DNA of 64,000 bases, from the IMG/VR virus record IMGVR_UViG_3300043607_000053. One strand, 5' to 3'. This document shows, in pieces, positions 1-64,000 of this stretch (position 1 is the stretch's first letter; the number at the start of each line of letters is the position of its first letter). Below the pieces are notes generated by a model, which was not told the origin of the DNA, made no database searches, and saw only the letters and a list, made by a program, of their open reading frames with translations. This DNA comes from a virus. Both the position numbers and the translations under genes were made by a program.

Positions 1-56
1 GCAATCTCCTTACTCAAACCACTTCCGAATCATTAAATTTTACCGGAGAATCAGGG

Positions 57-515
57 ATGCAATTTTTCTATGCTGCCGGAGATCCTGAATCTTCTGATCC
101 CTGGGCATCTATCACAAAGGCGTATGCGCAAAATAACCCGGGTCAAGCCATAGGCGCCGGCAGCGGTCCTGTGGCTAATACCACAACACCTACCACAACG
201 ACACAAAAAAGTGCACTGGGAAGCCTTTTATCCGATAAGAATACCCTCAGCTCGATCCTGAATACGGGACTTAGCACGCTTTCTACCAGCCTCACCAATA
301 AAAGCAATCAGAAATTGGCCAAAACTGCACTTGCTATTGAAACAGAAAAAACAAAGCAGGCGCAGGCTGCTGTGGCCGGTGGTGGCGCGGCACCAGGCAC
401 CCGCGCTCCGATAAGCATGGGGCTGAAAATCGGCCTGGCCGTAGGCGGGGCTGTGCTGTTAACTTTTGTGATCGTGATGCTCGTTAAACCAAAAGCAAAA
501 CCAAAAGCAGCATGA
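57..515 (+). CDS. Putative virion membrane protein, C-terminal TM helix plus Lys-rich tail
   Basis: T/S-rich linker, C-terminal LKIGLAVGGAVLLTFVIVMLV-KPKAKPK. Confidence 0.75.
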   Translation: MQFFYAAGDPESSDPWASITKAYAQNNPGQAIGAGSGPVANTTTPTTTTQKSALGSLLSDKNTLSSILNTGLSTLSTSLTNKSNQKLAKTALAIETEKTKQAQAAVAGGGAAPGTRAPISMGLKIGLAVGGAVLLTFVIVMLVKPKAKPKAA

Positions 516-826
516 AAAAAGCATTGATCATAACAGGCGCTCTTGCCATTGCTGGGACCGGAATATATATGTGGATTAAACAACCCGTTGTTGTTATCAA
601 TTTTAATAGCAAGACCGGTACAGGCGATGTAAGAATCGGTAATAAGACCGCTTCTTTTTCAGCAACGCAAGGTGTTATGATCGGTACCTGGAATGGGTAT
701 AAAATTTATGTGAAGGGTGGTACCGGTGAGTATGCACTTACCAGGTATGGGAAAAATATTGATTCAGCTACATCGATAACGCCCTATATGGGAGGCAGCT
801 CTTACTTAACGATAAATCATTTGTGA
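512..826 (+). CDS. Small membrane-anchored protein, N-terminal TM plus beta-rich domain
   Basis: MKKALIITGALAIAGTGIYMWIK; ATGA overlap with the previous gene. Confidence 0.75.
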   Translation: MKKALIITGALAIAGTGIYMWIKQPVVVINFNSKTGTGDVRIGNKTASFSATQGVMIGTWNGYKIYVKGGTGEYALTRYGKNIDSATSITPYMGGSSYLTINHL

Positions 827-828
827 TC

Positions 829-1056
829 ATGGCAGCAAGTATTGACGCTTTACTGGAAAAAGCTGACAACATAAAAAAGGATGATGGAAAAAATGATGGG
901 AAAAATAAAACCCGAAGCGCCTTCGCCGGCATGATCGTCGGCGGAGTAGTGGGAGTGATGATTGGTTATACAAAAAAATGGAATCTGTTTTATTCTCTAC
1001 TCGGGGGCGCTATCCTGGGAAGCGGAGTAACCTACATATTCACACCGGAAAGTTGA
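829..1056 (+). CDS. Small membrane protein with two GxxxG helices
   Basis: FAGMIVGGVVGVMIGY and LLGGAILGSGVTYIF. Confidence 0.7.
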   Translation: MAASIDALLEKADNIKKDDGKNDGKNKTRSAFAGMIVGGVVGVMIGYTKKWNLFYSLLGGAILGSGVTYIFTPES

Positions 1057-1080
1057 TTATTAAAATTTAAAATAACAATT

Positions 1081-1161
1081 ATGAAAAAAGCATGGATCTG
1101 GGTTGGTGTTGCAGGAGTGGCCGGGTTTCTTATCGGCAAATACGCCTTCCCTAAAAAGTAA
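1081..1161 (+). CDS. 26-aa membrane peptide MKKAWIWVGVAGVAGFLIGKYAFPKK (below ORF-track cutoff)
   Basis: Read directly; same TM+KK design as neighbours; A-rich leader; followed by a terminator. Confidence 0.65.
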   Translation: MKKAWIWVGVAGVAGFLIGKYAFPKK

Positions 1162-1184
1162 TAAATGTGCTGTTTTAATGAACG

Positions 1185-1212
1185 GGCGGTGTACACCGCA
1201 TCGCCTTTTTTT
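1185..1212 (+). terminator. Intrinsic terminator
   Basis: GGCGGTG/CATCGCC stem followed by T7. Confidence 0.6.
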
Positions 1213-1225
1213 ATTTTAAAATACA

Positions 1226-1552
1226 ATGAGCACAATAGCAAAAACAAGTAATGCTGCTTGGAAAGAATACAAGGCAGGAGGCGGGACCATCGTAAAATTT
1301 ACCGATTGGCTGCACCGTGAAAAGGAAAAAATGTTTTCAGCAAACGGAGAAGATGATAGCCTTTTGCTCGTTAATCGCAGCCTGAATGATTCAGTACAGG
1401 GAGCGATTAAAGACACATTGAAAACGGGTGGCTTAAAAGAAAAAACGAGCGGTAAAACGCTTTTTGGTATCAATACCAAATGGCTGATAGGGTCTGCCAT
1501 TGTACTTACCGGTGGAATTATTTATTTGATTGTGAAGAGGAACAAGAATTAA
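1226..1552 (+). CDS. Putative virion membrane protein, C-terminal TM
   Basis: WLIGSAIVLTGGIIYLIV-KRNKN. Confidence 0.75.
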   Translation: MSTIAKTSNAAWKEYKAGGGTIVKFTDWLHREKEKMFSANGEDDSLLLVNRSLNDSVQGAIKDTLKTGGLKEKTSGKTLFGINTKWLIGSAIVLTGGIIYLIVKRNKN

Positions 1553-1581
1553 AAACATTGTTCACTATTAAAACTAAAGCC

Positions 1582-1812
1582 ATGAAGACTGTATGGATTG
1601 TTCTTGGTTCTATGGCGGGAGCTGCAGCGGGATCCTACCTGTTTATGACGTACAAGGGGAAGAAAAAATGTAATTGCAGTGGTTCTACCGCTACTACTAC
1701 ACCTGCTACGCCACCTGCATCTATCACGCCGGCACCGCCGCCAGTTTCGCAACCAATACCTGCAACAGCAGCCGTCGCGATGGGCATGGATGGATGGAAG
1801 AGTTATTTCTAA
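1582..1812 (+). CDS. Membrane-anchored Pro/Thr/Ala-rich protein
   Basis: ATG 1582 (MKTVWIVLG...) preferred over the track start at 1480. Confidence 0.65.
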   Translation: MKTVWIVLGSMAGAAAGSYLFMTYKGKKKCNCSGSTATTTPATPPASITPAPPPVSQPIPATAAVAMGMDGWKSYF

Positions 1813-1824
1813 ATGTGAGAGATT

Positions 1825-2652
1825 ATGAATTTCCGTGTTTATACGGGCAGAGAAGAGCAGATTTTGAAAATAGGTGTCCGGACATTGACAGGTAAACCTG
1901 AAAAGATAAGATTGGTAGTTAGCGATGCCGAGCAAAATAATACCGTCTTTACCAGCAGGTATAATGTCTTCAACGGCGACCGGTTTTTCTATGTCCGTAT
2001 GCCACTGGCTCCGAAGATCGCGCTTGTCCAGGTATATAATGAGCAGATAGGCAACCGCCCTCAAAAGGATGAAAAAACTTTTGAGATGATCGATGAAAAC
2101 AATAAGCCCGATAAAGTAAATAACGGGATTTATAAAATGCCACTGGAGAAGAAAATGTCAGTGGTAGATATGGGAAACCCGGAAGTAAAAAGTTTTATCA
2201 CCTATGCGCAAAAATTTTGTTATAACGCCGGCATTCTTGATACCGGTAAATATCAAAGTGCGGATGGGCGTATTACTTTTCTGTATTCGCCAACCATTTT
2301 TAACAAGAAAGACGGCAAGGAAAGCAGCACGCCGGCACGGATAGCAGAAACATCGAAGATCATTGAAGTTTCGCAGAAAATATTTATTCCATTCACTGTG
2401 CCAATGCGCTTTGCAATTCTTTGCCATGAGTTTGCTCACTGTTATTTAAACCTGAATAAGGTGAGTGAGATAGAAGCTGATCTGCAGGGATTATTAATCT
2501 ATCTGGGCCTGGGCTATCCCCGGTTTGAAGCATACCAGGCATTTCTGGAGACTTTTATCGGCACGCCGTCAGAGCTGAATAAGAAACGCTACAATATCGT
2601 CAATCGTTTTATAACCGATTTTGAAAACAATAAATTCCTGATGTATGAGTAA
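1825..2652 (+). CDS. Zincin-like metallopeptidase (candidate maturation protease)
   Basis: ILCHEFAHCYL (HExxH) followed by EIEAD. Confidence 0.65.
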   Translation: MNFRVYTGREEQILKIGVRTLTGKPEKIRLVVSDAEQNNTVFTSRYNVFNGDRFFYVRMPLAPKIALVQVYNEQIGNRPQKDEKTFEMIDENNKPDKVNNGIYKMPLEKKMSVVDMGNPEVKSFITYAQKFCYNAGILDTGKYQSADGRITFLYSPTIFNKKDGKESSTPARIAETSKIIEVSQKIFIPFTVPMRFAILCHEFAHCYLNLNKVSEIEADLQGLLIYLGLGYPRFEAYQAFLETFIGTPSELNKKRYNIVNRFITDFENNKFLMYE

Positions 2653-2911
2653 GACAGGAAAAGGTCTTATAACCGTCGTTTGCATTGCCGTAATTGGCCT
2701 GGCTGTATTTCACCTTACCAACCAGGGCAAAAAGAAGTATGCAAAAGAGATTATAAAACTCAATGGTACCTTCGGGTCGTATGCATGGCTTATGTCCACG
2801 GAAGAAGGGTATTTAAAAGCATGGGCGAATGCGCTTGCAAAAGGCAAGGCGTCTTTTTCTTTTAATAATGAGAATTATAATACATCGGGGGGTAAAAAAA
2901 TAGTTATATGA
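2645..2911 (+). CDS. Small membrane-anchored protein
   Basis: N-terminal LITVVCIAVIGLAVFHL. Confidence 0.7.
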   Translation: MSKTGKGLITVVCIAVIGLAVFHLTNQGKKKYAKEIIKLNGTFGSYAWLMSTEEGYLKAWANALAKGKASFSFNNENYNTSGGKKIVI

Positions 2912-3411
2912 AAGTATTTGATCGGGCTTATCAGTTTTACGAAGGATTGCCTACCTGGGGCAAAGCAGTAGTAGTTATCGGGGGCGCCGGCTTAACCTGG
3001 TTTGGAATATTAAATCCTGTAAGAAAACTGATTATATCCAAACTGGACCAGGCTAAAATGGCAAAGGAAGGACAAAAAGCCGGTGATGAATTGAGCAAGC
3101 TGAAGAAACAGGGTGTAAATCCAACGATATCACCCGCGCAGGCTGAATCGTTTTCCAATTCACTCGTTTCTGCATTTTCAGGTTGCGGAACAGATGAAGA
3201 CGCAATCTATAACATAATGAAACAATTGAAAAACAATGCAGACGTATATCTGCTTATTAGCACTTTTGGGATAAGGAAGTATGACAGTTGTATGTGGGGA
3301 ACGACAGAGAAATCATTATCCGGCGCTATAAGTGATGAATTGGATTGGCTTGAAAAAATGGCTGTCAACAAGACTCTTGAAGCAAACAAAGTTTCGTTTC
3401 AATTCACTTAA
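2908..3411 (+). CDS. Membrane-anchored annexin-repeat-like protein
   Basis: AFSGCGTDEDAIYNIM matches the annexin GxGTDE motif; SLSGAISDEL resembles the annexin repeat end; N-terminal TM. Confidence 0.65.
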   Translation: MKVFDRAYQFYEGLPTWGKAVVVIGGAGLTWFGILNPVRKLIISKLDQAKMAKEGQKAGDELSKLKKQGVNPTISPAQAESFSNSLVSAFSGCGTDEDAIYNIMKQLKNNADVYLLISTFGIRKYDSCMWGTTEKSLSGAISDELDWLEKMAVNKTLEANKVSFQFT

Positions 3412-3420
3412 AAATTTGTT

Positions 3421-4107
3421 ATGCGAAAACCGCTTTATGTAACAGATAGAAAATTCACCGGTGATACCGGTTGTGCATTGGATTACCAGATTGGTTTTGA
3501 AGATGAATGCGGAGGCTATTGCAATTTTTTGGGCATTGGCAACAAAAAGGAGAAGGAAAGACGCGCCGATGTGTTGAATGAAGTGCGTGGTCGTTATCCT
3601 TCGCCAAAAAATTGCGCAGATGCAGAAGCGGGACTACCCAAATTGCGTGCTGATTTGGCCGATGCGCAACGCCAGCTCGATGCTGATCCAAAATCGTCTG
3701 TAAAACCTCGTTATATCGAAGCATATACCACTGTCCTGGGAGAATTTACTACTTATTACAACAATAATTGTCTTACCACTGCAGCAGATGTGCCAGCCAC
3801 TTCTACGCCTGTAATGCCGGGATCAATAAATACTGACCCTATCCTGCAAACAGCAACTCCGAGTGGTAGCACGGCAACATCGTTGGGCAATAATGCCACT
3901 ACTGCCGGCGCCACTGCAGGCGCTAGTGCAACCTCTTCTCCTGCAACCAGCGGAACAACGCCAGCAGGAAGCACGGCCCCTGCAATAAAGCAGAATGTAT
4001 TATCAAAAGTCCCAAAATGGGCTTGGTGGGTGGCCGGTGGATTGGTAGTGGTAACGATCGTGGCAGTTGTTATTAAGCATAAAAATGTTAAACCCGTTAA
4101 GGCATAA
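3421..4107 (+). CDS. Putative virion membrane protein, T/A-rich stalk, C-terminal TM
   Basis: WAWWVAGGLVVVTIVAVVI-KHK; paralogous core with the next gene. Confidence 0.75.
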   Translation: MRKPLYVTDRKFTGDTGCALDYQIGFEDECGGYCNFLGIGNKKEKERRADVLNEVRGRYPSPKNCADAEAGLPKLRADLADAQRQLDADPKSSVKPRYIEAYTTVLGEFTTYYNNNCLTTAADVPATSTPVMPGSINTDPILQTATPSGSTATSLGNNATTAGATAGASATSSPATSGTTPAGSTAPAIKQNVLSKVPKWAWWVAGGLVVVTIVAVVIKHKNVKPVKA

Positions 4108-4108
4108 T

Positions 4109-4609
4109 ATGGCCGTTGAATTATTTGACGATATCGACACTAATGTTCTGGCTTCATGTAAATCATTTCGTGGCCGGGATGAATATTTTAATGCCAATGC
4201 TGCAAAATTAAATCGCCAGGCTGAAACGGCGGCTGATGTTGTCCTTCAGTTTCCCTATCCTCCAAAGGATTGTGAACAGGCTACTACTATCATTCAGAAT
4301 ATTGAGGATCAGATAAAATCTCTCAATGAAAAACTGGCCAGTGGTGGTAATAAGGTTGATAAAAGATACCTGGACGCATATATCGGAATCCGCAACAATT
4401 TTAAAGCCTGGTTAAACGCAAAGCAATGTGTAGCTACTGCCTTGAAACAGGAGGATGATGCATTCAGCGAGCAATTGCAGACCGCATTGAATCAGGAACA
4501 AACTTCACAGGATAGCAGTAGTAGTAAAAATAATTGGATCATTTTCACTGCACTCGGTTTCCTTGTACTGGGTGCAGTAGCCATTATATTAAAACGACCT
4601 AAAAAGTGA
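4109..4609 (+). CDS. Putative virion membrane protein, C-terminal TM (paralog of 3421-4107)
   Basis: ATG 4109; PPKDC...KRYLDAY motif; WIIFTALGFLVLGAVAIIL-KRPKK. Confidence 0.75.
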   Translation: MAVELFDDIDTNVLASCKSFRGRDEYFNANAAKLNRQAETAADVVLQFPYPPKDCEQATTIIQNIEDQIKSLNEKLASGGNKVDKRYLDAYIGIRNNFKAWLNAKQCVATALKQEDDAFSEQLQTALNQEQTSQDSSSSKNNWIIFTALGFLVLGAVAIILKRPKK

Positions 4610-5133
4610 ATTGGCAAAAGGCAATAGGAATATCATTGATTGTTGGGTTAGCCGGTGGGCTTTACGCACTATACCGGTATGGAAAGAAGGAATCAAAAAA
4701 ACTGCAAGACTACCAGGTAGATCTTACCGGTATAAAGTTTACCAGCTTTTCCGAAGACCTGGTGACAATGGATGCTATGTTCCGCATTACTAATAAGTCA
4801 GCGATCGAGGCAACAATCGAAAAATTGTATGCTGACACTTATTTGAATGGTGCATACGTGGGAAATGTAGTCAATAGCGGTGCATGGCCAATTCCCGCCA
4901 AAGGAACATCGGATGATATCAAATTGAGTTTTACGTTTTCGAGCAAACAAATATTAAAAAATATCGTAGGCGCTCTTTTTAGTTTGATCACGACAAAAGA
5001 CGTGCCCTACCGGATAGCAGGATCGGCTACGGTAAAAAGTTTGTTCGTTTCATTCAGCGTTCCTTTTGATTATAGCGGATTTTTGAAGAGTGATATGCTG
5101 GGGACCGCAACACCGGTACCGGCGACAAAATAA
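4606..5133 (+). CDS. LEA type 2 (WHy) domain protein with N-terminal TM
   Basis: FRITNKSAIEATIEKLYADTYLNGAYVGNV...IPAKGTS...Y-I-G pattern. Confidence 0.7.
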   Translation: MNWQKAIGISLIVGLAGGLYALYRYGKKESKKLQDYQVDLTGIKFTSFSEDLVTMDAMFRITNKSAIEATIEKLYADTYLNGAYVGNVVNSGAWPIPAKGTSDDIKLSFTFSSKQILKNIVGALFSLITTKDVPYRIAGSATVKSLFVSFSVPFDYSGFLKSDMLGTATPVPATK

Positions 5134-5149
5134 TATCACACCGAAAATT

Positions 5150-5539
5150 ATGGATAGCAAAGAAATGATGGAAAAAATTGAAAAAAAGATCAGGCAAGGG
5201 ATAGCGAAATTCCAAAACGTGTACCAGTTGCCGGCAGACCAGGTGCAAATTGTATTTATGCTCGATGAAGAAGAGGAAGTGCAGTTTATGACTTGTGTCA
5301 ATAATCAATTAAGGCATAAGGTCAAGCTCTCGGATCTCATAGGAAAAAACATGACCAACTTTCTTGTGCGATCGCATTTGACAAAGGTTATTAAAAAGTT
5401 TGCCATAGAGCAAAACAGCAAGGACCGTAGCACTAATATTATCGCAGGTGTAAATGCTAAAGATGAGCTGTACATGCATTTGAGAAGGAACCATATCCTG
5501 ATCAGAAAAATTGAGGATCCTGACGAATTAAAAATTTGA
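5150..5539 (+). CDS. Hypothetical protein
   Basis: ATG 5150, packed in the operon. Confidence 0.6.
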   Translation: MDSKEMMEKIEKKIRQGIAKFQNVYQLPADQVQIVFMLDEEEEVQFMTCVNNQLRHKVKLSDLIGKNMTNFLVRSHLTKVIKKFAIEQNSKDRSTNIIAGVNAKDELYMHLRRNHILIRKIEDPDELKI

Positions 5540-5543
5540 GTAT

Positions 5544-5837
5544 ATGGGTATGCAGATTTGTACGCAGGTGGTGAGTGCGGGAAACAGTTTTGTGATAAAT
5601 GCGTCAATGGGCGTACTATCTATAAGTTATCAAATGAGCAATGGGACCGGTGATGCCGGTACTATTATCGGAAACTTTAATGGAACCAGCTCTACCGGAA
5701 GCCATTTAACAAACCAGGCGATAACCATTCCTGCAGGCGGTGGTAACAATTTCAGCAGTCCGTCGCCAGATCGCCCCATCGATGGTATTACACTACACTG
5801 TACGCAGGGTAGCTTAAATATCATATTGGGGTATTAA
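5544..5837 (+). CDS. Small beta-rich structural protein candidate
   Basis: Alternating hydrophobic strands, Gly/Ser/Thr-rich. Confidence 0.6.
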   Translation: MGMQICTQVVSAGNSFVINASMGVLSISYQMSNGTGDAGTIIGNFNGTSSTGSHLTNQAITIPAGGGNNFSSPSPDRPIDGITLHCTQGSLNIILGY

Positions 5838-5847
5838 ACTAATTGTC

Positions 5848-6957
5848 ATGTTTAGTATTGCAAAAAAATATTATGATCTTGGTTTTTTGGGAGGCGCTGG
5901 TATGCTTTCTTTCCTGCCCTTACCGGGTATAGGATCCGGCGGTGGTAGTGGCCCCCCTTTTGCGGCTGATTCGGCTGACAACGGGTTGTCAGTTGATCCC
6001 ATTACAGGGCATATAGTCCTGGGCAATGACCTGACTGATACGGCAGCTCTTCTATTGTCCGATCGGGAAATAGCGATGGGTGGAAAATCTATCCAACTTA
6101 CCGATCCGGACCTATTGCTTTTTATAAACAGCAACTCAATTCAGCTTACAGATAATTCCGGTGGAAATAATTTTATTGGATTATTTGTCAGTGCTACTGA
6201 TGCTCACATGGAACTGATAGGCACCGTAGGCGGTGGAAGTGCCCCGGCTATTAAAATATCCGAAGTTGGCTTCTCCCATTCCGAGATAAGAGTAATTGGA
6301 AGTGCTTTTGAAGTAGCGGGTACAAGCGGAACCCGGCTTATGCTTTCGGCTGATTCTGCTAATCAAATCTATCAATTGGGAGATCTTTCGGTAGCAGCTA
6401 ATGGTACATTGATCTCCGTAGAGCCAAGTAATCAAAGAGTAGTGGTTGGCCTTGCATCCGGAAACCGCGTTGCAGATTTTGGAACAACCAATTTTAATGT
6501 ACAACTAGGAGATATTGATAGCGTTGGTAACGATACTATACTAAATGTATTTGATAACCTGCAGAGAATAAATGCTAATGTAGGCGGCATAAATAATGTG
6601 TTGTTTTTAGATGGAACTTCTAAAAATTATTCTTTGGGTGATCCGGGAAGCGATTTTTTGTTGATTGATGGACTTGGATTTCAGACAAAGATTGTGACTA
6701 ATGGGACTACTACTTTGTTCCTGGATCTAATCAGCGGACAATACTCTATCGGTGATTTTGATGGCAGTGGCAATGGAACGCTTTTGACATTAGATGACGG
6801 GACTTCTATTGCGCGTATAGCTGCAACTAATGGCCTGAACCTGGCAGGATCGGCTTATTCGATCAACGGAACGCCGGGTGACAGCGGATCATTTACTGCT
6901 CAATCAGGGGAAACAGTAACCGTTACGGGAGGAATTATAACTGCTATTACGCCATAA
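5848..6957 (+). CDS. Spike/fibre-like protein with ~40-aa beta repeats
   Basis: Repeats YQLGDLSVAANGTLI, VQLGDIDSVGNDTIL, YSLGDPGS, YSIGDFDGSGNGTLL. Confidence 0.6.
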   Translation: MFSIAKKYYDLGFLGGAGMLSFLPLPGIGSGGGSGPPFAADSADNGLSVDPITGHIVLGNDLTDTAALLLSDREIAMGGKSIQLTDPDLLLFINSNSIQLTDNSGGNNFIGLFVSATDAHMELIGTVGGGSAPAIKISEVGFSHSEIRVIGSAFEVAGTSGTRLMLSADSANQIYQLGDLSVAANGTLISVEPSNQRVVVGLASGNRVADFGTTNFNVQLGDIDSVGNDTILNVFDNLQRINANVGGINNVLFLDGTSKNYSLGDPGSDFLLIDGLGFQTKIVTNGTTTLFLDLISGQYSIGDFDGSGNGTLLTLDDGTSIARIAATNGLNLAGSAYSINGTPGDSGSFTAQSGETVTVTGGIITAITP

Positions 6958-6983
6958 AATTTAATCATTATAAAAAAATACAG

Positions 6984-7181
6984 ATGAAAACGGAAATTTT
7001 GAATGCAACCTGCCTGCAGGCTACCGAAAACAAGAACAATTGCACAATCAGATTTGCTTTGGAAGGAGAAAAGCCTACTGATATTATTGCAAGTGCCATA
7101 TTCGCATATAAAGAACCGGATGAGGCAAAAAAGTTCTCTACCAAAAAAAAATACAATATCACGATAACGGAGGTTGAATAA
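6984..7181 (+). CDS. Hypothetical protein
   Basis: 65 aa, A-rich leader. Confidence 0.6.
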   Translation: MKTEILNATCLQATENKNNCTIRFALEGEKPTDIIASAIFAYKEPDEAKKFSTKKKYNITITEVE

Positions 7182-7198
7182 TTAATCAAACCGGGACT

Positions 7199-8146
7199 AT
7201 GAAAAAGATATGTCTGTTGCTTTTGTTGCCAATTTGTTGTTGGTCGCAAAGGCAAAATCTATTACTGGAAGCCACGTTCGACGGTACCAATCCCTTTGCA
7301 GGTTTTACACTTGCTAATGAGCAGTATTGCTGCAGCTATTCCATTAACCAGGTAGCCAACCCGCAAGGACCCGGCCAGGTCATAAAATATGATTTGCGCA
7401 GTACAGATCCTATTGTGTCCAGCTCGCTACGCGCAGAAATACAATTACAGGGTACAGATGCGCCGGAAAGCTCTGAAAGATGGTACGGCCTGCAATATTA
7501 CCTGCAGAACTATGGGGCCGACCCCGGACCGGAAAGTATTATGCAATGGCATGATATAGATGGTAGCTGCCCGCCCTTATCTCTGCAGGTGGCGGGTGGA
7601 CGTCTTCGGATTACCCAGTGTATCGATAACGGCAACACACATAATGATCTTGGCCCTGTTGTTTCAAATACCTGGTTTTCTATTGTCGCACGTATAAAAT
7701 GGGCAAGTACCAATACCGGTATTATACAGGTATGGCGCGATGGTCAGCGGTTAGTGAATAAAAGTAATATCCGGACAAACAGTACCGGGGGAAGTTATTT
7801 TAAGCTGGGTATCAACAAATGGTCATGGGCGCCTCCCCTTGTGGGAAGCTCCAACCAGACTGAACGCATTTTTTACATTGATAATTTCCGCATGGGAAAT
7901 CAGAATGCTTTTTATAATGATGTAGCGCCTGTTCCCCTGGTGGTAACACCAGTTATATGGGGATATTTCCGCTATAATGATAGTGTAAAAGCACTGGAAT
8001 GGGCTACGGAGACGGAACAAAACAATGATCACTTTGAAGTACAGGAAAGCGATGATGGGGCTAACTGGACAACTATTGGCAGTGTTGCAAGCAAAGCGAT
8101 CGATGGTAATAGTAATTCGACAATCACATATTCATACCAATTATGA
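7199..8146 (+). CDS. Secreted polysaccharide lyase-like (concanavalin-fold) protein with a half Bacteroidota Ig-like domain
   Basis: Signal peptide; RAE..., ERWYG, IMQWH, GIIQVWRDG, YFKLGINKW, YIDNFR; C-terminal LEWATETEQNNDHFEVQESDDG. Confidence 0.7.
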   Translation: MKKICLLLLLPICCWSQRQNLLLEATFDGTNPFAGFTLANEQYCCSYSINQVANPQGPGQVIKYDLRSTDPIVSSSLRAEIQLQGTDAPESSERWYGLQYYLQNYGADPGPESIMQWHDIDGSCPPLSLQVAGGRLRITQCIDNGNTHNDLGPVVSNTWFSIVARIKWASTNTGIIQVWRDGQRLVNKSNIRTNSTGGSYFKLGINKWSWAPPLVGSSNQTERIFYIDNFRMGNQNAFYNDVAPVPLVVTPVIWGYFRYNDSVKALEWATETEQNNDHFEVQESDDGANWTTIGSVASKAIDGNSNSTITYSYQL

Positions 8147-8346
8147 AAACGGTAAAAAAGATAATGTTTCTGTCAATGATCTTCTGCACCTGGTCGGTTT
8201 TATTATCGGGCAATTGCAGGCCCAATAGTACAACCACTGTTCCGGATCCTGTGATACCAAAACCAGCAGCGAAGCATTACCGGATCATGCAGGTTGACAA
8301 AGATGGCAACGTAAAATACAGCAACGTAATAATTGTTAAACAGTAA
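8143..8346 (+). CDS. Small exported/membrane peptide carrying the second half of the Ig-like domain
   Basis: Hydrophobic N-terminus; C-terminal HYRIMQVDKDGNVKYSNVIIVK. Confidence 0.6.
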   Translation: MKTVKKIMFLSMIFCTWSVLLSGNCRPNSTTTVPDPVIPKPAAKHYRIMQVDKDGNVKYSNVIIVKQ

Positions 8347-8364
8347 AAAAAAGGAGTTTTTTTT

Positions 8365-8691
8365 ATGAAAAGGTATTCATCATTGATAGCTGCCGCGATC
8401 GGAACTGTTATGTTAGTATTACAACAAGCCATGACAGAAAAGAGCTGGGATTTGAAAATTGTTGGATTCAGTGCGCTTATTGCAGTTATAGGCGCGATAT
8501 CTGTTCAATTGAAAGGAAAGGGAATTTCTTTGGGTGGTATTATAGGCACCGTTGGATATAATTTTTATACCATTTATTCTACCGGACATTTTACTGTTAA
8601 AGAATTTATTATTACGTCTGCATTTGCTGTTCTTGCTTTAATCCTGCCCAGTGTAAAACCGGTGCAGGATCCTCCAAAACCGAACCAATAG
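8365..8691 (+). CDS. Multi-pass membrane protein, holin candidate
   Basis: About four short TM segments in 108 aa, upstream of PG-acting genes. Confidence 0.5.
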   Translation: MKRYSSLIAAAIGTVMLVLQQAMTEKSWDLKIVGFSALIAVIGAISVQLKGKGISLGGIIGTVGYNFYTIYSTGHFTVKEFIITSAFAVLALILPSVKPVQDPPKPNQ

Positions 8692-8739
8692 AAGTAAAAG
8701 ATGTATTTTAGCAGTGGTTATTCGTAGTGAATTAAGGAA

Positions 8740-8967
8740 ATGTGGAATAAGAAGCTGTGGACCGACAACCGGCAGAAATTTCTGGAAACAGAGTATGAGA
8801 GCGCCTACAAACGCGCATTCGCTTCTTTCCAGGAATTTGAAAACAAGATGGACCCTTATATAAGGCAATGTCTTCGCTGCAATGGTTATTACTGGCTCGG
8901 CAACAGCAAACCGTGTGATTGTGAATTTGACCTTAATACGAATAACCATGCAAAAAAAGCACACTAA
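8740..8967 (+). CDS. Hypothetical protein with CxxC...CxC
   Basis: CLRC...CDC. Confidence 0.5.
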   Translation: MWNKKLWTDNRQKFLETEYESAYKRAFASFQEFENKMDPYIRQCLRCNGYYWLGNSKPCDCEFDLNTNNHAKKAH

Positions 8968-10098: not shown

Positions 10099-10202
10099 AA
10101 ACGGCCCCATGATGCGCTCAGGGACCGTTTACTGTCACAAATCCAATATGACAGAAAAACTAATCGAATAGCACAAGATAGAAATTAAAAATTCAAAAAC
10201 AA

Positions 10203-11179: not shown

Positions 11180-11180
11180 C

Positions 11181-11510: not shown

Positions 11511-11513
11511 GTT

Positions 11514-56400: not shown

Positions 56401-57868
56401 TGGTGGTGATGAGGTTGAAGACGTAAATACCGGCAATGATCAGCACCGTGGCCGGACCGAAGTAGTAATAATTTTAAAAGCAGGCACAATAGTTCCACTT
56501 AAAAGGAATATTGGAAGACATAAAGCTGGTGACAAGGTAGAATTAGCTTTTGATTTCTATGAAGGGGATGATAAATTAAAAGTAAGATGCTGTGATCAGG
56601 ACCGTATAAAAGAACTTTTTGAGGTAAAGCCATCCGATGTGATCATGCCGGGTGAGACAACCGGCATTGACAATAAAGAATCTGACGGTGACGAAAAAAC
56701 AGAACCAGGCATGAAGCCTGCAGGCGGGGAAAAAATACAGGTCAGACAAATTTCTTTAGGCGCTGCAAAAACCGTGGGTGATTATAATGAAGCTAACCGG
56801 GCGCTGCGCTGGATACTGGATAATAAAAAACAATCGAACCAGGAATATGATATCACTTTTGCTGACGGCTTTATTTTATCCGGGTCTATTGACCTGGAAC
56901 CCTCTACCTTTTGGAAGGATAAGCCGCAGCCGTTCACCTGGCACATAAATACGTTTTGGAATAATATAGCCAATTCTAAGCCTAATCCGGCTTTCCCAAC
57001 TGAAACCGATATCCAATTTGCAGAAGCAGTGGTAAATAATTATGATTTGGGATCTGCCGGCATTATTGAAAATAAAAAGCAGCCATTAAAGCAAGCATCA
57101 ACCACTACCAATAGCCAGCAGGTGCAGATCAATAACCAGGTGCGTGAGCTGATCAAAGAAAAGGGCATAGATTCTCTAAAATATAGTGCGCAAGAATTAT
57201 CACTATTGAAATTGTATGAAGGTGCCGGCGCGGAAAAGGGCAGTAGCACCGATGTAAGGATCCTGGACCAGTTTTTCACGCCAATGGACATTTGCGGAAA
57301 AATGTGGGGTATGGCCATCAAGCATGGGTTTAAATTTCCAGGAAGCAGCATTTGTGAACCCGCAGTAGGAAGTGGACGTTTCTTGTCCTATATCCCGTCC
57401 GATGCCGGCGCATACGTGCGTGCCTACGATGTGGATGAAACGGCATATTCAATTTGCAAAATCTTATATCCAGCATTCGATATCAGGCATAAAAGTTTTG
57501 AAACCGAATTTTTCAAAGGACGTCGCCATATCGGTCTCGCCGGTGTAACGAAGTTCTTTGACCTGGTGATCGGCAATCCTCCTTACCGTGAATATGTAAG
57601 TGAATATGCACCACTGGGAGAAAAGAAGGAAACCGGGGCGTTTACTTTTGAAATGTACTTTATCGCAAGAGGCATTGACGTGCTTGTACCAGGTGGACTA
57701 CTTATATATATTATCCCGAATACCTTTTTGAGCAACGATAATAAGTATAATGAGTTTAAAGAAAAGCTGGCGAAAAAATGTGATTTCCTCGATGCATACA
57801 GATTGCCTAACGGTGTGTTTTCAAATACAGAAGTAAGCACCGATATCATTGTATTGAGAAAAAAATAA
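53414..57868 (+). CDS. Large polyvalent protein: papain-like, JAB/RadC, DUF2958-like and N6-adenine MTase domains
   Basis: ATG 53414; GGCYPFA..H..LDSDG; HNHPSGGLTPSRGD; LHYFYGGSDWYI...EWGYISIEE; QFFTP, EPAVGSGRF, VIGNPPY. Confidence 0.85.
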   Translation: MKHKNGKAGGYLVGKKHSQGGIPIVNTDNPSQKIEAEDGEVIITAPAVKDNKVRVLKGTNRQILSQINQLGGGVSFAKGGEIPKSIKCSGRKYEYGGKIMTDYDIVKSCGCKHSGKKMGKGGSTDNDSNDWDISEALFKKEGNAIAKKLNSDEGYKILDSDPEIVNTTWSSGGCYPFARAMQQIFGGKLVFIWDRGIAQHVMLNVGKLYLDSDGVSDIGKKFKVAKTEGLKNPVLEEFDIKKIGAIGIGGENLVRKIVEYATSEGTGKMQKGGNTGDIYDDMNAQFPSVKKTMEKVKKFLIENGYTIIKEHEPDFDTDGSLELTEKIHVSIDMECEFSAGLESADGERFLFYQPTTSLKKLLAQIKEAEENKEFKDGGEIENQANPNKEIEQELIEAIKVLKAPPKHPLSNYVNDPKAFLSFIQEQATGLNPQRTSVTLPEGLTPELAFNSAVTLVGSEDFVLQSIKILPEETKAIIKKAWYGKIIPVKLRRVVAERKFEYGGMFQQGRKTLALKVPEGTVRNSAFYQTFKKGGYFDKGGAVRSLVPYRENSFISSLVVKQGGELAESKYKAPRIGLYAPRIELTYTNEDKIPVRKVNTSQGIFDFLWQIWNKDTLPILEQSYILYLNTNLRIIAYYDLSKGGITGTVVDPRLVVATAAQAGATNVVLAHNHPSGGLTPSRGDLKVTEQLAAALKETDTTLMDHLIITPDGQYYSFLDNGKLQYARGGKIGKSKASNDDKKTGIVEFTKMIGKVNPFVPQFQITYLANLFRGEEKQAAIDILTDLIEVINKIPYTYQTKNQSADEKIVYLHYFYGGSDWYIVEKDKGDLSDPIPGTQNQAYGYVILNGDLIDAEWGYISIEEIRQNEQIELDFYFTPVPFGELKKKWQDPEEEQGEEQQQGPEYSFVGGKNNSLDLVKFSSYATTYKWLDDFNEFNLLKNYEPIRVDEEDATDTIPEGYYLAKGSTVTKYAWEGNQNFLNRGTFESNLALLENRKAGGDEVEDVNTGNDQHRGRTEVVIILKAGTIVPLKRNIGRHKAGDKVELAFDFYEGDDKLKVRCCDQDRIKELFEVKPSDVIMPGETTGIDNKESDGDEKTEPGMKPAGGEKIQVRQISLGAAKTVGDYNEANRALRWILDNKKQSNQEYDITFADGFILSGSIDLEPSTFWKDKPQPFTWHINTFWNNIANSKPNPAFPTETDIQFAEAVVNNYDLGSAGIIENKKQPLKQASTTTNSQQVQINNQVRELIKEKGIDSLKYSAQELSLLKLYEGAGAEKGSSTDVRILDQFFTPMDICGKMWGMAIKHGFKFPGSSICEPAVGSGRFLSYIPSDAGAYVRAYDVDETAYSICKILYPAFDIRHKSFETEFFKGRRHIGLAGVTKFFDLVIGNPPYREYVSEYAPLGEKKETGAFTFEMYFIARGIDVLVPGGLLIYIIPNTFLSNDNKYNEFKEKLAKKCDFLDAYRLPNGVFSNTEVSTDIIVLRKK

Positions 57869-59351: not shown

Positions 59352-62300
59352 ATGAATCCATTCATAGGCGATAATTTCTTCAAACAGAACCCTTCCAAAG
59401 TTTTGGGTAAACAATACACCAAAAAGGGCCGGTTTGGATCTGATATGATCATGGTGGAAGGAAATTTTAGCGATATTGACAAAATTGAAGCCTCCCCGGT
59501 CGAGGTAGTGGATATATATGCTCACCAGGTATTCAGCAAAGAGACAAAACAGGAAATTATTGACCAAGTATTCCAACAAGAGGAAAAGGAAAATACTGAG
59601 AAGAAAGTAACAAAACGCCGGAAAGGAAAATCGGATGAGAAGGAAACAGAAAATGACAATGAAGTTTATTCATTTGCCGAGATCGATCAATTATACAACG
59701 AGGGCATTACCCGGGATGAAAAAGAAGCCTATTATTTCACTCACCCGGAGCTGAATTATAAATTACTATTCGATAAATACACCAATAGCAAAGAAGATTT
59801 TATAAAGAAAAGCCTTATTTGCTGGGACCCGGAGCTTAGGGAATTTGTATATCGATATACCTATCAATCCGGTAATGTATCAAAAAAGATATCGGACCTG
59901 CAGCGTGAAAAGGATCGCTTTATCTCCAGCCTGGGAGAGCCAATGTGGAATAAGCAACTGGCCATGCTAAATGATGTAAGACCTAAGCAAAAAGGGTTTG
60001 TGGGGGATGAAAAAATTGTGCTATTGCCCCATTCCAATTTTGTAAAGGAGTTTCAGATTGAGGAATTACGATTTGGAAAACCGCAGCTCAATGGAGCTAC
60101 CAGCCTGGTGTATGCATTTAAACGCTGGTTATCTGAATTGCCACCGGATAATTTTAAGAAATCCACTGTTCGTGAAATCATTGAATATTACCTGGATAAC
60201 AAGGCGATCAGTATAGATAGTAAAGCCAACAAAGCCGAACAGGTTAAGCAGGAAAAGAATGCGATCAATATAAGACAGCGAACAAAAGAAGAGGGCGACG
60301 AACTGTTTGCCCGTTTTCTTTCTGATGAATTGCTCCCGGAGGACCAGGCGAAGCTGGCTTATATGTGGAATCAGAAATTTAATAGCCTGGCTGAACCGGA
60401 TTTGAATAAGATCCCTGTGTGTTTTAAGATGGGTAAGAAATTCAAAGCCGGACCATTGTTGCTTAATCCTACACAAAGACGAGCTGCTGCAATGGCTACG
60501 GAAAAGAAAAGTACATTATTGGCTTATGGAGTGGGAGTTGGTAAAACGCTTGCATCGATCGTATGTTTTTCGCAGGCATACTATAACGGTTATGCAAACA
60601 AAGGTTGTTTTGTGGTGCCCACAAATACCTATGATAAATGGGTAGGCGAAATACAGGGCTATACAGATAGTAAGACCGGTAAGTTCATGCATGGTGCCCT
60701 TCCGCAAATGCCACCGGTGATTGGCTTGTATAACCTTAATCCCAACATTGTAAGGGAAAAGCTGAAAATTTATACCAAAGACGAACAGGCAAAACTGGAT
60801 AGCATTGAAGAAGCAATCCATAAAATCAAAACTTTTAAAGGAGATATCCCTACCGATAACCAAACGCAAATAATCAATAGAATTTATCCTGTCAACTGGT
60901 TGGGATTACGGGCTGCGTATGGCAACTACCTGGAACTAACCAGCAGTAAGCGTCCGAAAACACTAATGGAGTATGCTGCGGAGTATCTTAAAGAAGAGTT
61001 TAATTACTATATATACGACCTGGGCAGGATCAAAGAATTTGCTGATGGTACCATTTTCGTGATAACGGAAGTAGGTCTGCAGCGTCTTGGTCTGAATGAA
61101 GGCCACAAGGACGAACTGGCCGGTAAATTCTATACCATATTGTCACAGGGAGAATCGACTGCAGGCCGTGAGGCAGGCCGTGATATCGCCAAACTCATGG
61201 AAAAAATAAATCAGACTGTCTCCAGCAGCATGAAAAATGCAAAATTGCTGGTAGAAGATTTTGGCATTAACTGGGTATGTTTTGATGAAGCCCATTATTA
61301 TAAAAAGATTTTCACCTATGTAAAGGGTGCTATCAAAGGAGAATCGATTGACGAAGAAACCGGGCAGAAAAAATACAAGCGTGATAAAAGCAAATATGAA
61401 TTGAAGTCCGGCGCCTTTCCTTCATCCCGGGCGCTCAGTGCCTTTGTGATGAGCCATTATATTCAAAGCCAAAATGCCAACAGGAATGTCATACAACTAA
61501 CCGCGACGCCGTTCACGAATAGCCCACTGGAAGTATATTCAATGCTTGCTCTTACCAATTATCATTTACTGGAAGAGCTGGGCCTGTCCAATATGGTTGA
61601 TTTCTTTGACACATTTATGCGGATCAATTATGATATCAAATACACACCGCAAAAAACAGTAGTTAAAGACGTAGTGCTTACAGGATATAATAATCTTCCG
61701 CAGCTCCGGCAGATTATTTATTCGCTCATGGATAAAAAGGATGAAGGCGCAAATTTAAAACGTCCGACAAAAGTAATATGGCCATCCATTGACAAGGGCA
61801 TCGAGACAACAATGAAAATGACGTCCGAACAGGAAGAGCTGATGCGCAATGTTAAGTCCTATATTCAGGGAAATTCCGAATACGAAGAGATTTGTTCATC
61901 GGCACTGAAGGAAGAGATTGACAATATTGATTTTGATGGCCTCGGAGATGAGGACCTTATTTCCGAATGGGAGAAATCGACAAGTAATGAATACCAGGGC
62001 GACCGGGAAGAATTAACCGAAGCGAAGCGGCAACAGTTAATCGAACAGATTAAAAAAGCGAAAGCATCCGGAATAGAATTTAGCGCCGGGGACCTGGCAG
62101 AAGAAGAGGCTATGGGTGTGCGCATTCTCAAAGGGCTGGCCATGATGCGGCAGATCACTCTTTCTCCTTACCTGTATTATAAAGCCTGCAGAAAGGCCGG
62201 GGAAATGGCTTCGCAACTACCTGATTGGCTGGACTATGTAAACAGCAGCCCGAAATTCAAATATACAATGGGTTGCATTGATAGTGCAATGAGGTGGCAT

Positions 62301-63944
62301 AAAGAGAACGGAACAAAGCCGGGAGGCCATGTTATTTACATGAATGCTGGTGTTGAATATTTTCCACTCTTGAAAGAGTACCTGGTACGCAAGCTGGGTT
62401 TTAAGGAAAACCAGGTAGGCATCGTTAGCGGTGGAATGGGCAAAAACGCAAAGGAATCAGTTAAACAAAAATTCCTGGCCGGTGATATCCTGGTATTGAT
62501 AGGAAGCAGTACAATTAGTGTTGGTGTGGATCTGCAATCTAATGCATCCACACTTTATAACCTGTATTATGATTGGAACCCGACCGATGCGGCACAGATA
62601 GAGGGCCGGATATGGCGCCAGGGAAACCGGTTTGCATTTACGAGGATCGTTTATCCTCAATGTTTCAATAGTGCTGACCCGGTAATTTTTGAATATCTCA
62701 ATTCAAAAACTTTGCGTATAAATGAAATCTGGAATCGTAGCAGCACGATGCAGGAACTTGATTTGCGTGACTTCGATCCAAAGAAATTACAGAAGGAGCT
62801 GATCACTGATCCGGAAGAGAAAGCCGATTGGGAAATTTTGGAGGAAAGCGACCGCATACAGAGCGATATCATATTTGCCGAAAACCGTCGCGAAAGTCTT
62901 AGCAATGCTATGTATTCTTTCAGGACTGTAAAGGACCTGCGGCCAAAAGTTATACACTGGATGAATCAATTATCGGCACGCAAAATAAAGATCACCAGGG
63001 ATGAGGCTATTGCTAATCAAAAGGAAAGAATCAGCGAGATCGTTGAAAAGTATAGCGACAATCCGGATAAAATGGCCAGCGAAATCGAGAAATATAAAAA
63101 AAGCAGGTATGACTATGAAAATGATCCGGAAGGGAAATACTTGCCAATGGATTATGCAGAGCTGGGGGATGAAAAAATGTATGCGGATGCAAAAAAATAC
63201 CTGGAACTGGTAGAGGAATGGAATTACCGTAGTGAATCGGATTGGGGCGATCTGTATCTCAACCGTGGATCAATTGAAAGGGAACTGCAGGAGTTTCGCA
63301 ATAATTACAAGGACATGAAAGCTGCAGAGGAAAGAATTATAAAACCAATGGGACTGTCATTTGAAACAGCGTCGGATCCGATGGCTTCTTTTGATGCGAT
63401 GGTGAGCGATTTGCAAAAGCAGCTTACTGAAATAGAAGACAGCCGGCCAGCCCGGGTAAACAGGATCCGGGAGGAAATGGCGAAAAGGAATATTGTTGTT
63501 AAAACTGTGGATGACCGGATAAGGGAGTTTGCATCATTTAACGGAAAATATTTGGAGCCTCAATTGGTTTATACTGATAATAAGCAACAGGAAGTTGTTC
63601 CTGCTACTCAATTACCGGCGGCGGGTGCACAACCAGGTAAAAAGGAAAAACCTGTTACTGCTATGCCGGCAGCTCCGGTGACAAAGCCGGCTATTGAAAA
63701 GAAACAAAAAACGGCACCTGCAGAAAAACCCGTTACTCCAAAACCTGTTATTAAAACACCTGGTGAAATATCTAAGGAAAACAAGCTGGTATCGGTGAAA
63801 AAAGGACCTGCAGATCAGAAAAAAATAATCAAGCAGCAGATCGAGGCGCTTACTATTGCGCTTCAATTTGCTGAAAATAAGAGCAAACCTGTTCTTACCA
63901 GGGAGATCGATGCGCTGGATATTGCATTACAATTTGCAGCGTAA
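59352..63944 (+). CDS. DarB-like SF2 (SNF2-type) helicase, without a fused MTase
   Basis: AYGVGVGKT, FDEAH, LTATPFTNSPLE, VGVDLQ, WNPTD..QIEGRIWRQGN. Confidence 0.85.
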   Translation: MNPFIGDNFFKQNPSKVLGKQYTKKGRFGSDMIMVEGNFSDIDKIEASPVEVVDIYAHQVFSKETKQEIIDQVFQQEEKENTEKKVTKRRKGKSDEKETENDNEVYSFAEIDQLYNEGITRDEKEAYYFTHPELNYKLLFDKYTNSKEDFIKKSLICWDPELREFVYRYTYQSGNVSKKISDLQREKDRFISSLGEPMWNKQLAMLNDVRPKQKGFVGDEKIVLLPHSNFVKEFQIEELRFGKPQLNGATSLVYAFKRWLSELPPDNFKKSTVREIIEYYLDNKAISIDSKANKAEQVKQEKNAINIRQRTKEEGDELFARFLSDELLPEDQAKLAYMWNQKFNSLAEPDLNKIPVCFKMGKKFKAGPLLLNPTQRRAAAMATEKKSTLLAYGVGVGKTLASIVCFSQAYYNGYANKGCFVVPTNTYDKWVGEIQGYTDSKTGKFMHGALPQMPPVIGLYNLNPNIVREKLKIYTKDEQAKLDSIEEAIHKIKTFKGDIPTDNQTQIINRIYPVNWLGLRAAYGNYLELTSSKRPKTLMEYAAEYLKEEFNYYIYDLGRIKEFADGTIFVITEVGLQRLGLNEGHKDELAGKFYTILSQGESTAGREAGRDIAKLMEKINQTVSSSMKNAKLLVEDFGINWVCFDEAHYYKKIFTYVKGAIKGESIDEETGQKKYKRDKSKYELKSGAFPSSRALSAFVMSHYIQSQNANRNVIQLTATPFTNSPLEVYSMLALTNYHLLEELGLSNMVDFFDTFMRINYDIKYTPQKTVVKDVVLTGYNNLPQLRQIIYSLMDKKDEGANLKRPTKVIWPSIDKGIETTMKMTSEQEELMRNVKSYIQGNSEYEEICSSALKEEIDNIDFDGLGDEDLISEWEKSTSNEYQGDREELTEAKRQQLIEQIKKAKASGIEFSAGDLAEEEAMGVRILKGLAMMRQITLSPYLYYKACRKAGEMASQLPDWLDYVNSSPKFKYTMGCIDSAMRWHKENGTKPGGHVIYMNAGVEYFPLLKEYLVRKLGFKENQVGIVSGGMGKNAKESVKQKFLAGDILVLIGSSTISVGVDLQSNASTLYNLYYDWNPTDAAQIEGRIWRQGNRFAFTRIVYPQCFNSADPVIFEYLNSKTLRINEIWNRSSTMQELDLRDFDPKKLQKELITDPEEKADWEILEESDRIQSDIIFAENRRESLSNAMYSFRTVKDLRPKVIHWMNQLSARKIKITRDEAIANQKERISEIVEKYSDNPDKMASEIEKYKKSRYDYENDPEGKYLPMDYAELGDEKMYADAKKYLELVEEWNYRSESDWGDLYLNRGSIERELQEFRNNYKDMKAAEERIIKPMGLSFETASDPMASFDAMVSDLQKQLTEIEDSRPARVNRIREEMAKRNIVVKTVDDRIREFASFNGKYLEPQLVYTDNKQQEVVPATQLPAAGAQPGKKEKPVTAMPAAPVTKPAIEKKQKTAPAEKPVTPKPVIKTPGEISKENKLVSVKKGPADQKKIIKQQIEALTIALQFAENKSKPVLTREIDALDIALQFAA

Positions 63945-64000
63945 TTTTTGAAATATTCAAATACGAATTATGAGCTACGATAAAGCGAAACTGAAAGAAA

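Follow-up and report, generated by a model that had tools for sequence, protein, structure and literature searches.

What kind of virus carries the 64-kb stretch of DNA recorded in IMG/VR as IMGVR_UViG_3300043607_000053, and with what machinery would it package its genome and build its particle? This stretch, analysed at its full length and referred to here as the window, has a G+C content of ~42% and is without tRNA genes. A preliminary description of the window had read it as a large tailless, membrane-containing Bacteroidota virus apparently kept as a plasmid, with its capsid and packaging genes probably upstream of base 1. We found that the window is part of the genome of an uncultured double-stranded DNA phage from a large undescribed family, and that the core of this family includes a small ATPase, predicted from its modelled structure to be of the B204 packaging type, next to a jelly-roll protein. 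A tailless, membrane-containing phage is the identity that we favour, at somewhat better than an even chance. We infer the membrane in the virion, the tailless shape, the capsid role of the jelly-roll proteins and the plasmid state from the genes alone.

A predicted B204-type packaging ATPase is probably encoded upstream of the window

The closest relative is a 79,425-bp Joint Genome Institute (JGI) contig whose zincin metallopeptidase is 88% identical to that of the window, and which, in both stretches sampled, is collinear with it at 60–88% amino acid (aa) identity. Base 1 of the window maps 13.8 kb inside one end of this contig, and the window end lies ~1 kb from the other. We therefore take the window to be roughly 80% of an ~80-kb genome. 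In the relative, the genes include, in order, a PAP2-like protein, an acidic protein with a basic tail, a 298-aa ATPase with Walker A and B motifs, a 255-aa beta protein, transmembrane (TM) proteins, and then the window's first genes. The ATPase gene ends ~1.8 kb before the window start and the 255-aa jelly-roll gene ends 0.7 kb before base 1; two membrane proteins follow the latter, the second of which is the gene that base 1 of the window cuts. A Logan contig from the window's own strain (its zincin is letter-identical) extends 1.1 kb upstream of the window and encodes the C-terminal 150 residues of the 255-aa protein, at 87% identity (L005:1-459); here too the gene stops 0.7 kb short of base 1. 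By extension from the relative, at 66–88% identity, this genome would also carry the ATPase.

AlphaFold models were made of two proteins, the ATPase (from a 31-member alignment) and the 255-aa jelly-roll protein (from 40 sequences). The ATPase model had a mean predicted local distance difference test score (pLDDT) of 86.8. Its 13 best Foldseek matches in the PDB were all to the packaging NTPase B204 of Sulfolobus turreted icosahedral virus (STIV) or STIV2, at E ~1e-7, followed by Zot, VirB4, HerA and FtsK. A VIA search, which is independent of Foldseek, also placed B204 first (Z 16.9, root-mean-square deviation 2.6 Å, 187/204 residues), with DndH, VirB4 and HerA behind it at Z 15–16 (VirB4 at 15.6) and TrwB at 12.7. 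Comparison by profile gave a graded picture: 21 of the 31 family members matched the HerA DUF87 model, hhalign paired the ATPase with the packaging ATPase of Thermus phage P23-77 (ORF13) at 90% probability (E 1.6e-6, 143 columns), the alignment to B204 itself was weak (160 residues, E 0.029), and those to P9 of PRD1 and P9 of PM2 were P-loop matches only. Across the family the protein is a single domain of 270–298 aa that spans all of B204. These models and profiles identify it as a small single-domain motor of the A32/B204 type used by tailless membrane-containing viruses. The expectation of a packaging ATPase and a capsid gene just upstream of base 1 was therefore largely borne out, as a B204-type ATPase and a jelly-roll protein were found there but a major capsid protein with a double jelly roll was not.

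The protein encoded directly upstream of the ATPase (L007:2951-3970, 339 aa) is acidic at its N-terminus, contains a Pro/Gln-rich stretch and ends in a very basic tail. Its homologues are 320–385 aa long and always adjoin the packaging ATPase, with tails such as KGKRRKSSKK. This protein could act in DNA binding, as a terminal protein or as an accessory factor in packaging.

The conserved beta-barrel proteins are single jelly rolls

The model of the 255-aa protein contains a beta-sandwich at residues 71–222 (pLDDT ~88), preceded by a disordered N-terminus that opens with a short helix. Its best fold match was the capsid domain of the nepovirus grapevine fanleaf virus (GFLV; Z 6.4), and the penton protein P31 of PR772 was also matched (Z 5.3). 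Capsid domains of nucleocytoplasmic large DNA viruses (NCLDV) and of phiCjT23 followed at Z 4.6–5. Carbohydrate-binding modules, TNF and nucleoplasmin were matched as well, and an ESM Atlas look-up and a shape search returned nothing informative. The fold is thus a jelly roll but the match is generic, which leaves the capsid role unproven.

The window itself encodes a second, smaller member of this family. A 165-aa protein near the end of its first gene array matched the 230–262-aa jelly-roll family in phmmer (5e-12 to 3e-6) and in hhalign (97.4% probability, E 1.2e-11, 105 columns), and it has homologues in G001 and G003, two IMG/VR genomes with inverted terminal repeats (ITRs) that recur below. 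A double jelly-roll capsid protein as in PRD1 or PM2 (Varidnaviria), which the preliminary description had anticipated, did not emerge; only single-barrel paralogues were found. One candidate, a 343-aa beta-rich protein encoded before the ATPase in the closest relative, was rejected as the family's capsid protein, since it has only three homologue clusters among 1.8 billion representatives and is absent from 64 relatives; an ESM Atlas look-up of it gave nothing informative.

The first 14 kb of the window form a membrane-protein operon

Directly after these upstream genes, positions 1-14,124 of the window form a single + strand gene array, with the following features.

1-14124, + strand: morphogenesis operon, collinear with the closest relative's JGI contig and with the ITR genomes G001 and G003
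3-515, + strand: C-terminal portion of a membrane protein, bearing a TM segment at that end and a KPKAKPKAA tail; cut by the window start, the full gene encoding 239 aa (own-strain contig L005)
1825-2652, + strand: zincin metallopeptidase of 275 aa with an N-terminal beta domain and an invariant HExxH...E motif; the family hallmark
4606-5133, + strand: membrane-anchored LEA_2 beta-sandwich protein (PF03168, E 4.9e-10), conserved among relatives, with a homologue in G001
5848-6957, + strand: Gly/Ser/Thr-rich spike-like protein; no family matched
7199-8146, + strand: secreted polysaccharide lyase, probable depolymerase (PF14099, E 2.3e-32)
10595-11179, + strand: CHAP peptidoglycan hydrolase with an N-terminal anchor (TM residues 3-24; PF05257, E 1.5e-6)
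11824-12366, + strand: glucosaminidase with a C-terminal anchor (TM residues 155-176; PF01832, E 4.3e-8)
12373-12870, + strand: small jelly-roll protein of 165 aa, paralogue of the jelly-roll protein adjoining the packaging ATPase
12880-14124, + strand: beta-propeller protein, the last operon gene; repeats seen by eye, weak EPTP/DUF6242 matches

A Kyte-Doolittle scan found one or more TM segments in 18 of the 29 open reading frames (ORFs) called in 1-14.1 kb versus 15 of the 85 in 14.2-64 kb. Among the 18, two minus-strand ORFs are probably spurious and the segment of the propeller is doubtful; three or four others, judged by eye, fall just below the threshold (1226-1552, 1480-1812, 4606-5133 and 11514-11822). 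Most of these operon membrane proteins are single-pass, and by eye many have Lys/Arg-rich ends, among them KPKAKPKAA, KRNKN, KHKNVKPVKA, KRPKK, RKKKP, KKMKT and RKKSA; under a rule of 3 in 12 residues, a K/R-rich flank was present in 9 of the 18. The equivalent block of G003 has TM segments in 22 of its 46 ORFs. These counts and the visible basic flanks agree with the ~18 small membrane proteins with K-rich tails that had been read in this 14-kb operon.

The spike-like proteins reported for the operon were likewise recovered, at 5848-6957 and 12880-14124. The first position is variable, with relatives encoding adhesin- or fibre-like proteins of 560–1262 aa there: those of G003 carry UspA1 repeats, and the 1262-aa protein of G001 has tail-fibre-like PHROG matches in its C-terminal part. 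At the position of the 12880-14124 propeller, G003 encodes an NHL/SBBP propeller, and the window's protein is a candidate vertex spike or receptor binder. The description of membrane-tethered peptidoglycan enzymes held for the CHAP protein and the glucosaminidase, each with a Pfam match and a TM segment, but not for the two putative peptidoglycan-binding proteins at 8882-9607 and 9604-10098, which had no Pfam match and were proposed from a GxDGxxGxxT-like motif seen by eye.

In the zincin, H201, E202 and H205 are invariant, and its neighbours in the ESM Atlas are M48, U49 and M78 peptidases. A capsid role for the zincin was weighed and dismissed on the strength of the invariant HExxH motif and the M48/U49 neighbours.

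Searches for terminase, portal, HK97 capsid and tail genes

Are head and tail genes of tailed phages present nonetheless? We scanned all window ORFs of at least 250 aa with Pfam, and most of them with PHROGs, and found no match to a portal, HK97 capsid or tail gene. In the closest relative, the ~15 kb upstream of the window's counterpart gave no match to TerL, portal or HK97, and six-frame searches of five relatives' whole records, including three with a completeness of at least 90%, gave none to Terminase_6N, TerL_ATPase, Phage_portal or Phage_capsid; control genomes were matched in the same six-frame searches. The reported absence of terminase, portal, HK97 capsid and tail genes therefore stands for the window and, as regards terminase, portal and HK97, for the relative's upstream flank and the five relatives.

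Two apparent terminases were set aside. An 823-aa protein of G001 (L081:11986-14457, - strand) has strong PHROG matches to 'terminase large subunit' and 'primase' (E 1e-35), which we attribute to an intein (Hom_end/LAGLIDADG) lying within an AAA_5 MoxR-like ATPase; in G003 the orthologue lacks the intein and is 455 aa long. The other is encoded in the window.

45442-47175, + strand: AAA_10 (HerA/VirB4-like) ATPase of 577 aa; accessory gene

This protein has a P-loop N-terminal half followed by a coiled-coil and helical C-terminal half. Its terminase PHROG match, the sole terminase signal in the window, is limited to a 93-residue P-loop region (E 1.5e-6), and a PDB profile search gave a coiled-coil match only. 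It has at least 769 homologues at 53–57% identity on contigs up to 138 kb, and one of these, on contig L003, adjoins a Terminase_2 small terminase and a DUF4055 portal, a tailed-phage context. Because its gene is missing from the five family relatives examined and sits beside a canonical terminase and portal in L003, we rejected it as the terminase or packaging motor; it resembles an accessory gene that phages exchange widely.

These searches bear on the possibility that the element is a very divergent tailed phage (Caudoviricetes) whose head-tail genes escape Pfam and PHROGs, as those of crAss-like phages once went unrecognised, with the membrane operon serving in lysis, superinfection or the host envelope. 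Its genome size would be typical of such a phage, many ORFs are without annotation, the ESM Atlas clusters of the zincin are automatically labelled Uroviricota, and the 1262-aa protein of G001 has its tail-fibre-like C-terminal matches. Set against this are the lack of TerL, portal and HK97 matches in the window, the relative's upstream 15 kb and the five relatives' records, the intein behind the G001 'terminase', and the conserved small ATPase, which is B204-like and not terminase-like; moreover, once the polyvalent and spike proteins are set aside, few ORFs above 400 aa remain that could be a portal or TerL. We consider this explanation unlikely.

The core defines a family of large genomes, two of them with inverted terminal repeats

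Homologues of the zincin number 556, at ~50% identity, and lie on contigs of up to 91 kb. A pattern scan found the zincin on 64 IMG/VR viral contigs; at least 64 contigs share the core, in records of 60–132 kb, far larger than the genomes of PRD1 and PM2, just as had been proposed. Among 65 relative loci (the 64 from IMG/VR and one contig from the European Nucleotide Archive), the zincin is present in 65, the jelly-roll protein in 63 and the ATPase in 62; the adjacency of ATPase and jelly roll is kept in 62–63, and PAP2-like and basic-tailed proteins occur in most. Megablast of window 1-25 kb gave no match to PLSDB plasmids or GenBank phages, and tblastn of the zincin and the ATPase gave none in 50,697 phage records. 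We found no description of the family in the literature.

ITRs were present in two of the five IMG/VR records inspected, G001 and G003, and were confirmed over ≥129 nt and ≥661 nt. Both genomes are collinear across their whole length with the window plus its upstream region. As these two relatives are linear with ITRs, the genome of the window is likely to be linear with such repeats as well. A 132,486-bp contig from a Sediminibacterium metagenome-assembled genome (MAG) bin, with a uniform G+C content of ~32%, is collinear over ~3-120 kb with the 72.5-kb ITR genome G003, so we regard it as a larger family member and not as a chromosomal prophage.

A compact, distant relative is integrated in the chromosome of a Parvicellaceae MAG, within ~20 kb at ~1,365,700-1,390,440. 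It carries a RadC-like homologue and homologues of the ATPase (40% identity), the basic-tailed protein, the jelly-roll protein and the zincin. The locus coincides with a dip in G+C content, a tRNA-Met lies ~6 kb past the last homologue, and a second copy is present on contig C2 of the same assembly. Ten genome matches were obtained in all: four are Bacteroidota, including both long contigs, and the rest are short MAG contigs from assorted phyla. On the basis of MAG binning and this one integrated relative, the hosts of the family are probably Bacteroidota, and for the window itself such a host is plausible. The Bacteroidota -7 promoter motif TAnnTTTG stood upstream of 2 of 114 genes versus 3 in an antisense control; it was not enriched and is uninformative on the host.

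In three relatives (L016, L019 and L027), a lysis cassette lies between the ATPase and the jelly-roll gene. It encodes an M15-type peptidase (SxHxxGxAxD) or an NlpC/P60-like enzyme, together with a lipoprotein with a C-terminal TM segment that, from its sequence, looks like a unimolecular spanin. The M15 endolysin and spanin-like genes of relatives, and a core common to 64 IMG/VR viral contigs, uphold the view that the element is viral.

The remainder of the window: partition, glycosylation and anti-restriction genes

Downstream of the operon we identified the following features.

15518-16513, - strand: paralogous propeller, with weak EPTP/DUF6242 matches like those of 12880-14124
17070-17918, - strand: DNA methyltransferase (phrog_757, E 4.7e-43)
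30579-32700, + strand: partition-like module of ParA, a 106-aa ORF and three palindromic arrays
30584-31294, + strand: ParA (families AAA_31, CbiA, MipZ and VirC1)
31291-31611, + strand: 106-aa ORF of the partition-like module; no family match
32810-52574, + strand: glycosyltransferase/methyltransferase cluster (GT2 x5, GT25-like, GT4, DUF5672, Methyltransf_24 x2, FkbM)
53387-57868, + strand: DarB-like polyvalent anti-restriction protein with RadC/JAB and N6-methylase domains
59352-63944, + strand: DarB-like polyvalent anti-restriction protein of 1530 aa with an SNF2 helicase

The palindromic arrays, of AGGTG(C/T)AAAT, lie at 30579-30622, 31608-31652 and 32643-32700, flank ParA, and hold perfect inverted repeats of 20 and 26 nt. 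A ParA/adaptor/centromere set had been proposed here; the ParA is clear and three arrays are present, but the 106-aa 'adaptor' had no family match. No plasmid Rep or initiator was recognised in the window. Consistent with the earlier reading, no integrase was matched among the window ORFs of at least 250 aa, and host genes were found neither in the 64-kb window nor in the 79-kb relative. The ParA and palindromic arrays, the missing integrase match and the lack of host genes across 64–79 kb make maintenance as a plasmid plausible for this genome. A plasmid-prophage state is not a trait of the family, as ParA is missing from G001 and G003 and one distant relative is integrated.

The cluster at 32.8-52.6 kb is unusually dense, with at least seven glycosyltransferases and four methyltransferases, and its genes at 32810, 44230 and 51264 are kept in the distant relatives G001 and G003. 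In the closest relative, the counterpart of the SNF2 protein (L083:15065-20294) is 2194 aa long and has extra ddrB-ParB, Zeta-toxin and AAA_33 domains. Because the window's SNF2 gene ends at 63944, these domains may form a separate gene past the window end.

The gene content of the window raises the alternative of a conjugative or secretion-based plasmid, in which the membrane proteins, peptidoglycan hydrolases and VirB4/HerA-like ATPase would form a type IV-like apparatus. ParA, ArdA- and DarB-like polyvalent proteins, peptidoglycan hydrolases and many small membrane proteins would all suit such an element, as would the 577-aa AAA_10 ATPase and the alignment of the core ATPase model to VirB4 and TrwB (Z 15.6 and 12.7). 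Pfam and PHROG scans of the window and relatives, however, gave no relaxase, coupling protein or full-length VirB4, and the core ATPase is a single domain of 270–298 aa that covers all of B204. The linear genomes with terminal repeats among relatives, the classification of 64 relatives as viral by IMG/VR, the endolysin and spanin-like genes of relatives, and the spike/adhesin and depolymerase genes also speak against a plasmid of this kind, which we regard as highly improbable.

A model of the particle and its weighing

For the tailless, membrane-containing phage that we favour, the gene content suggests a scheme in which the small FtsK-HerA ATPase of A32/B204 type, encoded just upstream, would pump DNA into the virion. 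Its shell or vertices would be built from single jelly-roll paralogues, the 255-aa protein encoded upstream and the 165-aa protein of 12373-12870. A lipid membrane would bear the ~18–20 small single-pass proteins of the operon, with their Lys-rich ends toward the DNA, and the membrane-anchored CHAP protein and glucosaminidase, the lyase, the spikes and the propeller would serve entry. The conserved zincin may process virion proteins, and through ParA and the palindromic sites the lineage may persist as an extrachromosomal prophage.

A number of points weigh against this reading. The ATPase and the large jelly-roll gene lie outside the window, and the ATPase was seen in relatives only. No double jelly-roll protein was found, the conserved beta-barrels all being single jelly rolls (165–262 aa; of these the 255-aa protein was modelled), although one may be hidden among the other ORFs. 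The fold matches of the jelly-roll model are generic, at Z of 6.4 or less and under the tool's noise guide of ~8; its BFVD matches are mainly to C1q/TNF-like fibre heads, and hhalign against VP16, VP17, PM2 P2 and PRD1 P31 gave less than 1% probability. A third paralogue in the closest relative (236 aa, L008:3770-4480) opens with DRRKFLK, a twin-arginine-like signal suggestive of periplasmic export, which would be unusual in a capsid protein. The terminal-repeat relatives yielded no protein-primed polymerase, and ParA is absent from G001 and G003. Finally, negative searches with hidden Markov models may miss very divergent head-tail genes, and the ESM Atlas automatically labels clusters of the family Uroviricota.

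Several of these points could instead be accommodated by a non-icosahedral enveloped or pleomorphic virus, or by a plasmid-like element transmitted in vesicles, with the membrane proteins making up the envelope, the jelly rolls acting as TNF/C1q-like receptor binders and the ATPase loading DNA into the vesicles. The C1q/TNF fibre-head matches and the twin-arginine-like signal of one paralogue would fit, no bona fide capsid protein was identified, and ParA, plasmid-style anti-restriction proteins and the membrane-related PAP2 and LEA_2 proteins would be at home in such an element. B204/A32-type ATPases, however, are known from icosahedral internal-membrane viruses, the ATPase and the jelly roll stay adjacent in 62–63 loci, and the endolysin and spanin-like genes of relatives indicate lytic release. 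This explanation appears quite unlikely to us.

The fullest form of the tailless, membrane-containing reading is a new high-rank lineage of internal-membrane Bacteroidota phages, with linear genomes of 60–132 kb bearing ITRs, single-jelly-roll capsids and a B204-type ATPase, which would be by far the largest prokaryotic jelly-roll/A32 viruses and of which some would be ParA-bearing linear-plasmid prophages. We advance this combination tentatively, its chances being slightly short of even. Known prokaryotic viruses that combine an A32/B204 ATPase with jelly-roll capsids and an inner membrane span ~10–45 kb in genome size; phages with large genomes are taken to be tailed, and automatic pipelines seem to label these contigs as tailed phages. 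If the proposal is true, a sizeable share of what aquatic viromes list as 'unclassified Caudoviricetes' is of another kind, and the size limit of the inner-membrane virion design rises several-fold. The question of single versus double jelly rolls would also be open to study in an abundant and maybe culturable bacterial lineage, with hosts such as Sediminibacterium and Flavobacteriales.

Comparison with known systems

To our knowledge, Salisaeta icosahedral phage 1 (SSIP-1) is the sole cultured large tailless membrane-containing phage of a Bacteroidota host. It has a circular genome of 43.8 kb with 57% G+C and propeller-like vertex spikes. Kinship with SSIP-1 was rejected, as the ATPase, jelly-roll and zincin profiles all gave E >1 in its six-frame translation.

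STIV and STIV2 (Turriviridae) provide the best structural match, B204, which extends over the whole family ATPase. STIV is, in contrast, an archaeal virus of 16–17 kb with a double jelly-roll capsid, and no other gene is held in common.

With PRD1 (Tectiviridae) and PM2 (Corticoviridae) the family shares a general plan of a small FtsK-HerA ATPase adjoining capsid genes, virion peptidoglycan hydrolases and vertex spikes, with about half of the structural genes encoding small membrane proteins. Terminal repeats also occur in PRD1 and Bam35-like phages, some of which are maintained as linear plasmids. The family differs from PRD1 and PM2 in that no double jelly roll was found, the ATPase similarity is confined to the P-loop, the genome is 5–8 times larger, and no protein-primed polymerase was detected in the relatives.

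A last comparison is with the Halopanivirales, whose ATPase, that of P23-77, is homologous to the family's by hhalign. Genomes here are 4–8 times larger (60–132 kb versus 16–31 kb), and the two jelly-roll genes are 12 kb apart instead of adjacent and have no sequence similarity to VP16 or VP17. The hosts here are mesophilic bacteria, probably Bacteroidota, as opposed to Thermus or haloarchaea, and the family adds the zincin, PAP2, a large glycosylation cluster and polyvalent proteins. The two sizes of jelly-roll protein, ~165 and ~255 aa, nevertheless resemble those of P23-77 VP16 (173 aa) and VP17 (291 aa), and the order of ATPase, jelly roll, small membrane proteins, virion peptidoglycan hydrolases or lysozymes, and spikes is shared with P23-77 as well as with PRD1 and PM2. 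Sphaerolipoviridae combine two capsid proteins and an inner membrane with a linear, terminally repeated genome of ~30 kb (PMC12643093), and the relatives' linear genomes with ITRs are a likeness to that family. Single barrels of two sizes with no double jelly roll, an ATPase closest to those of P23-77 and B204, and the terminal repeats of the relatives make the Halopanivirales (Helvetiavirae/Singelaviria), and not PRD1 or PM2, the nearest pattern to this family among known viruses.

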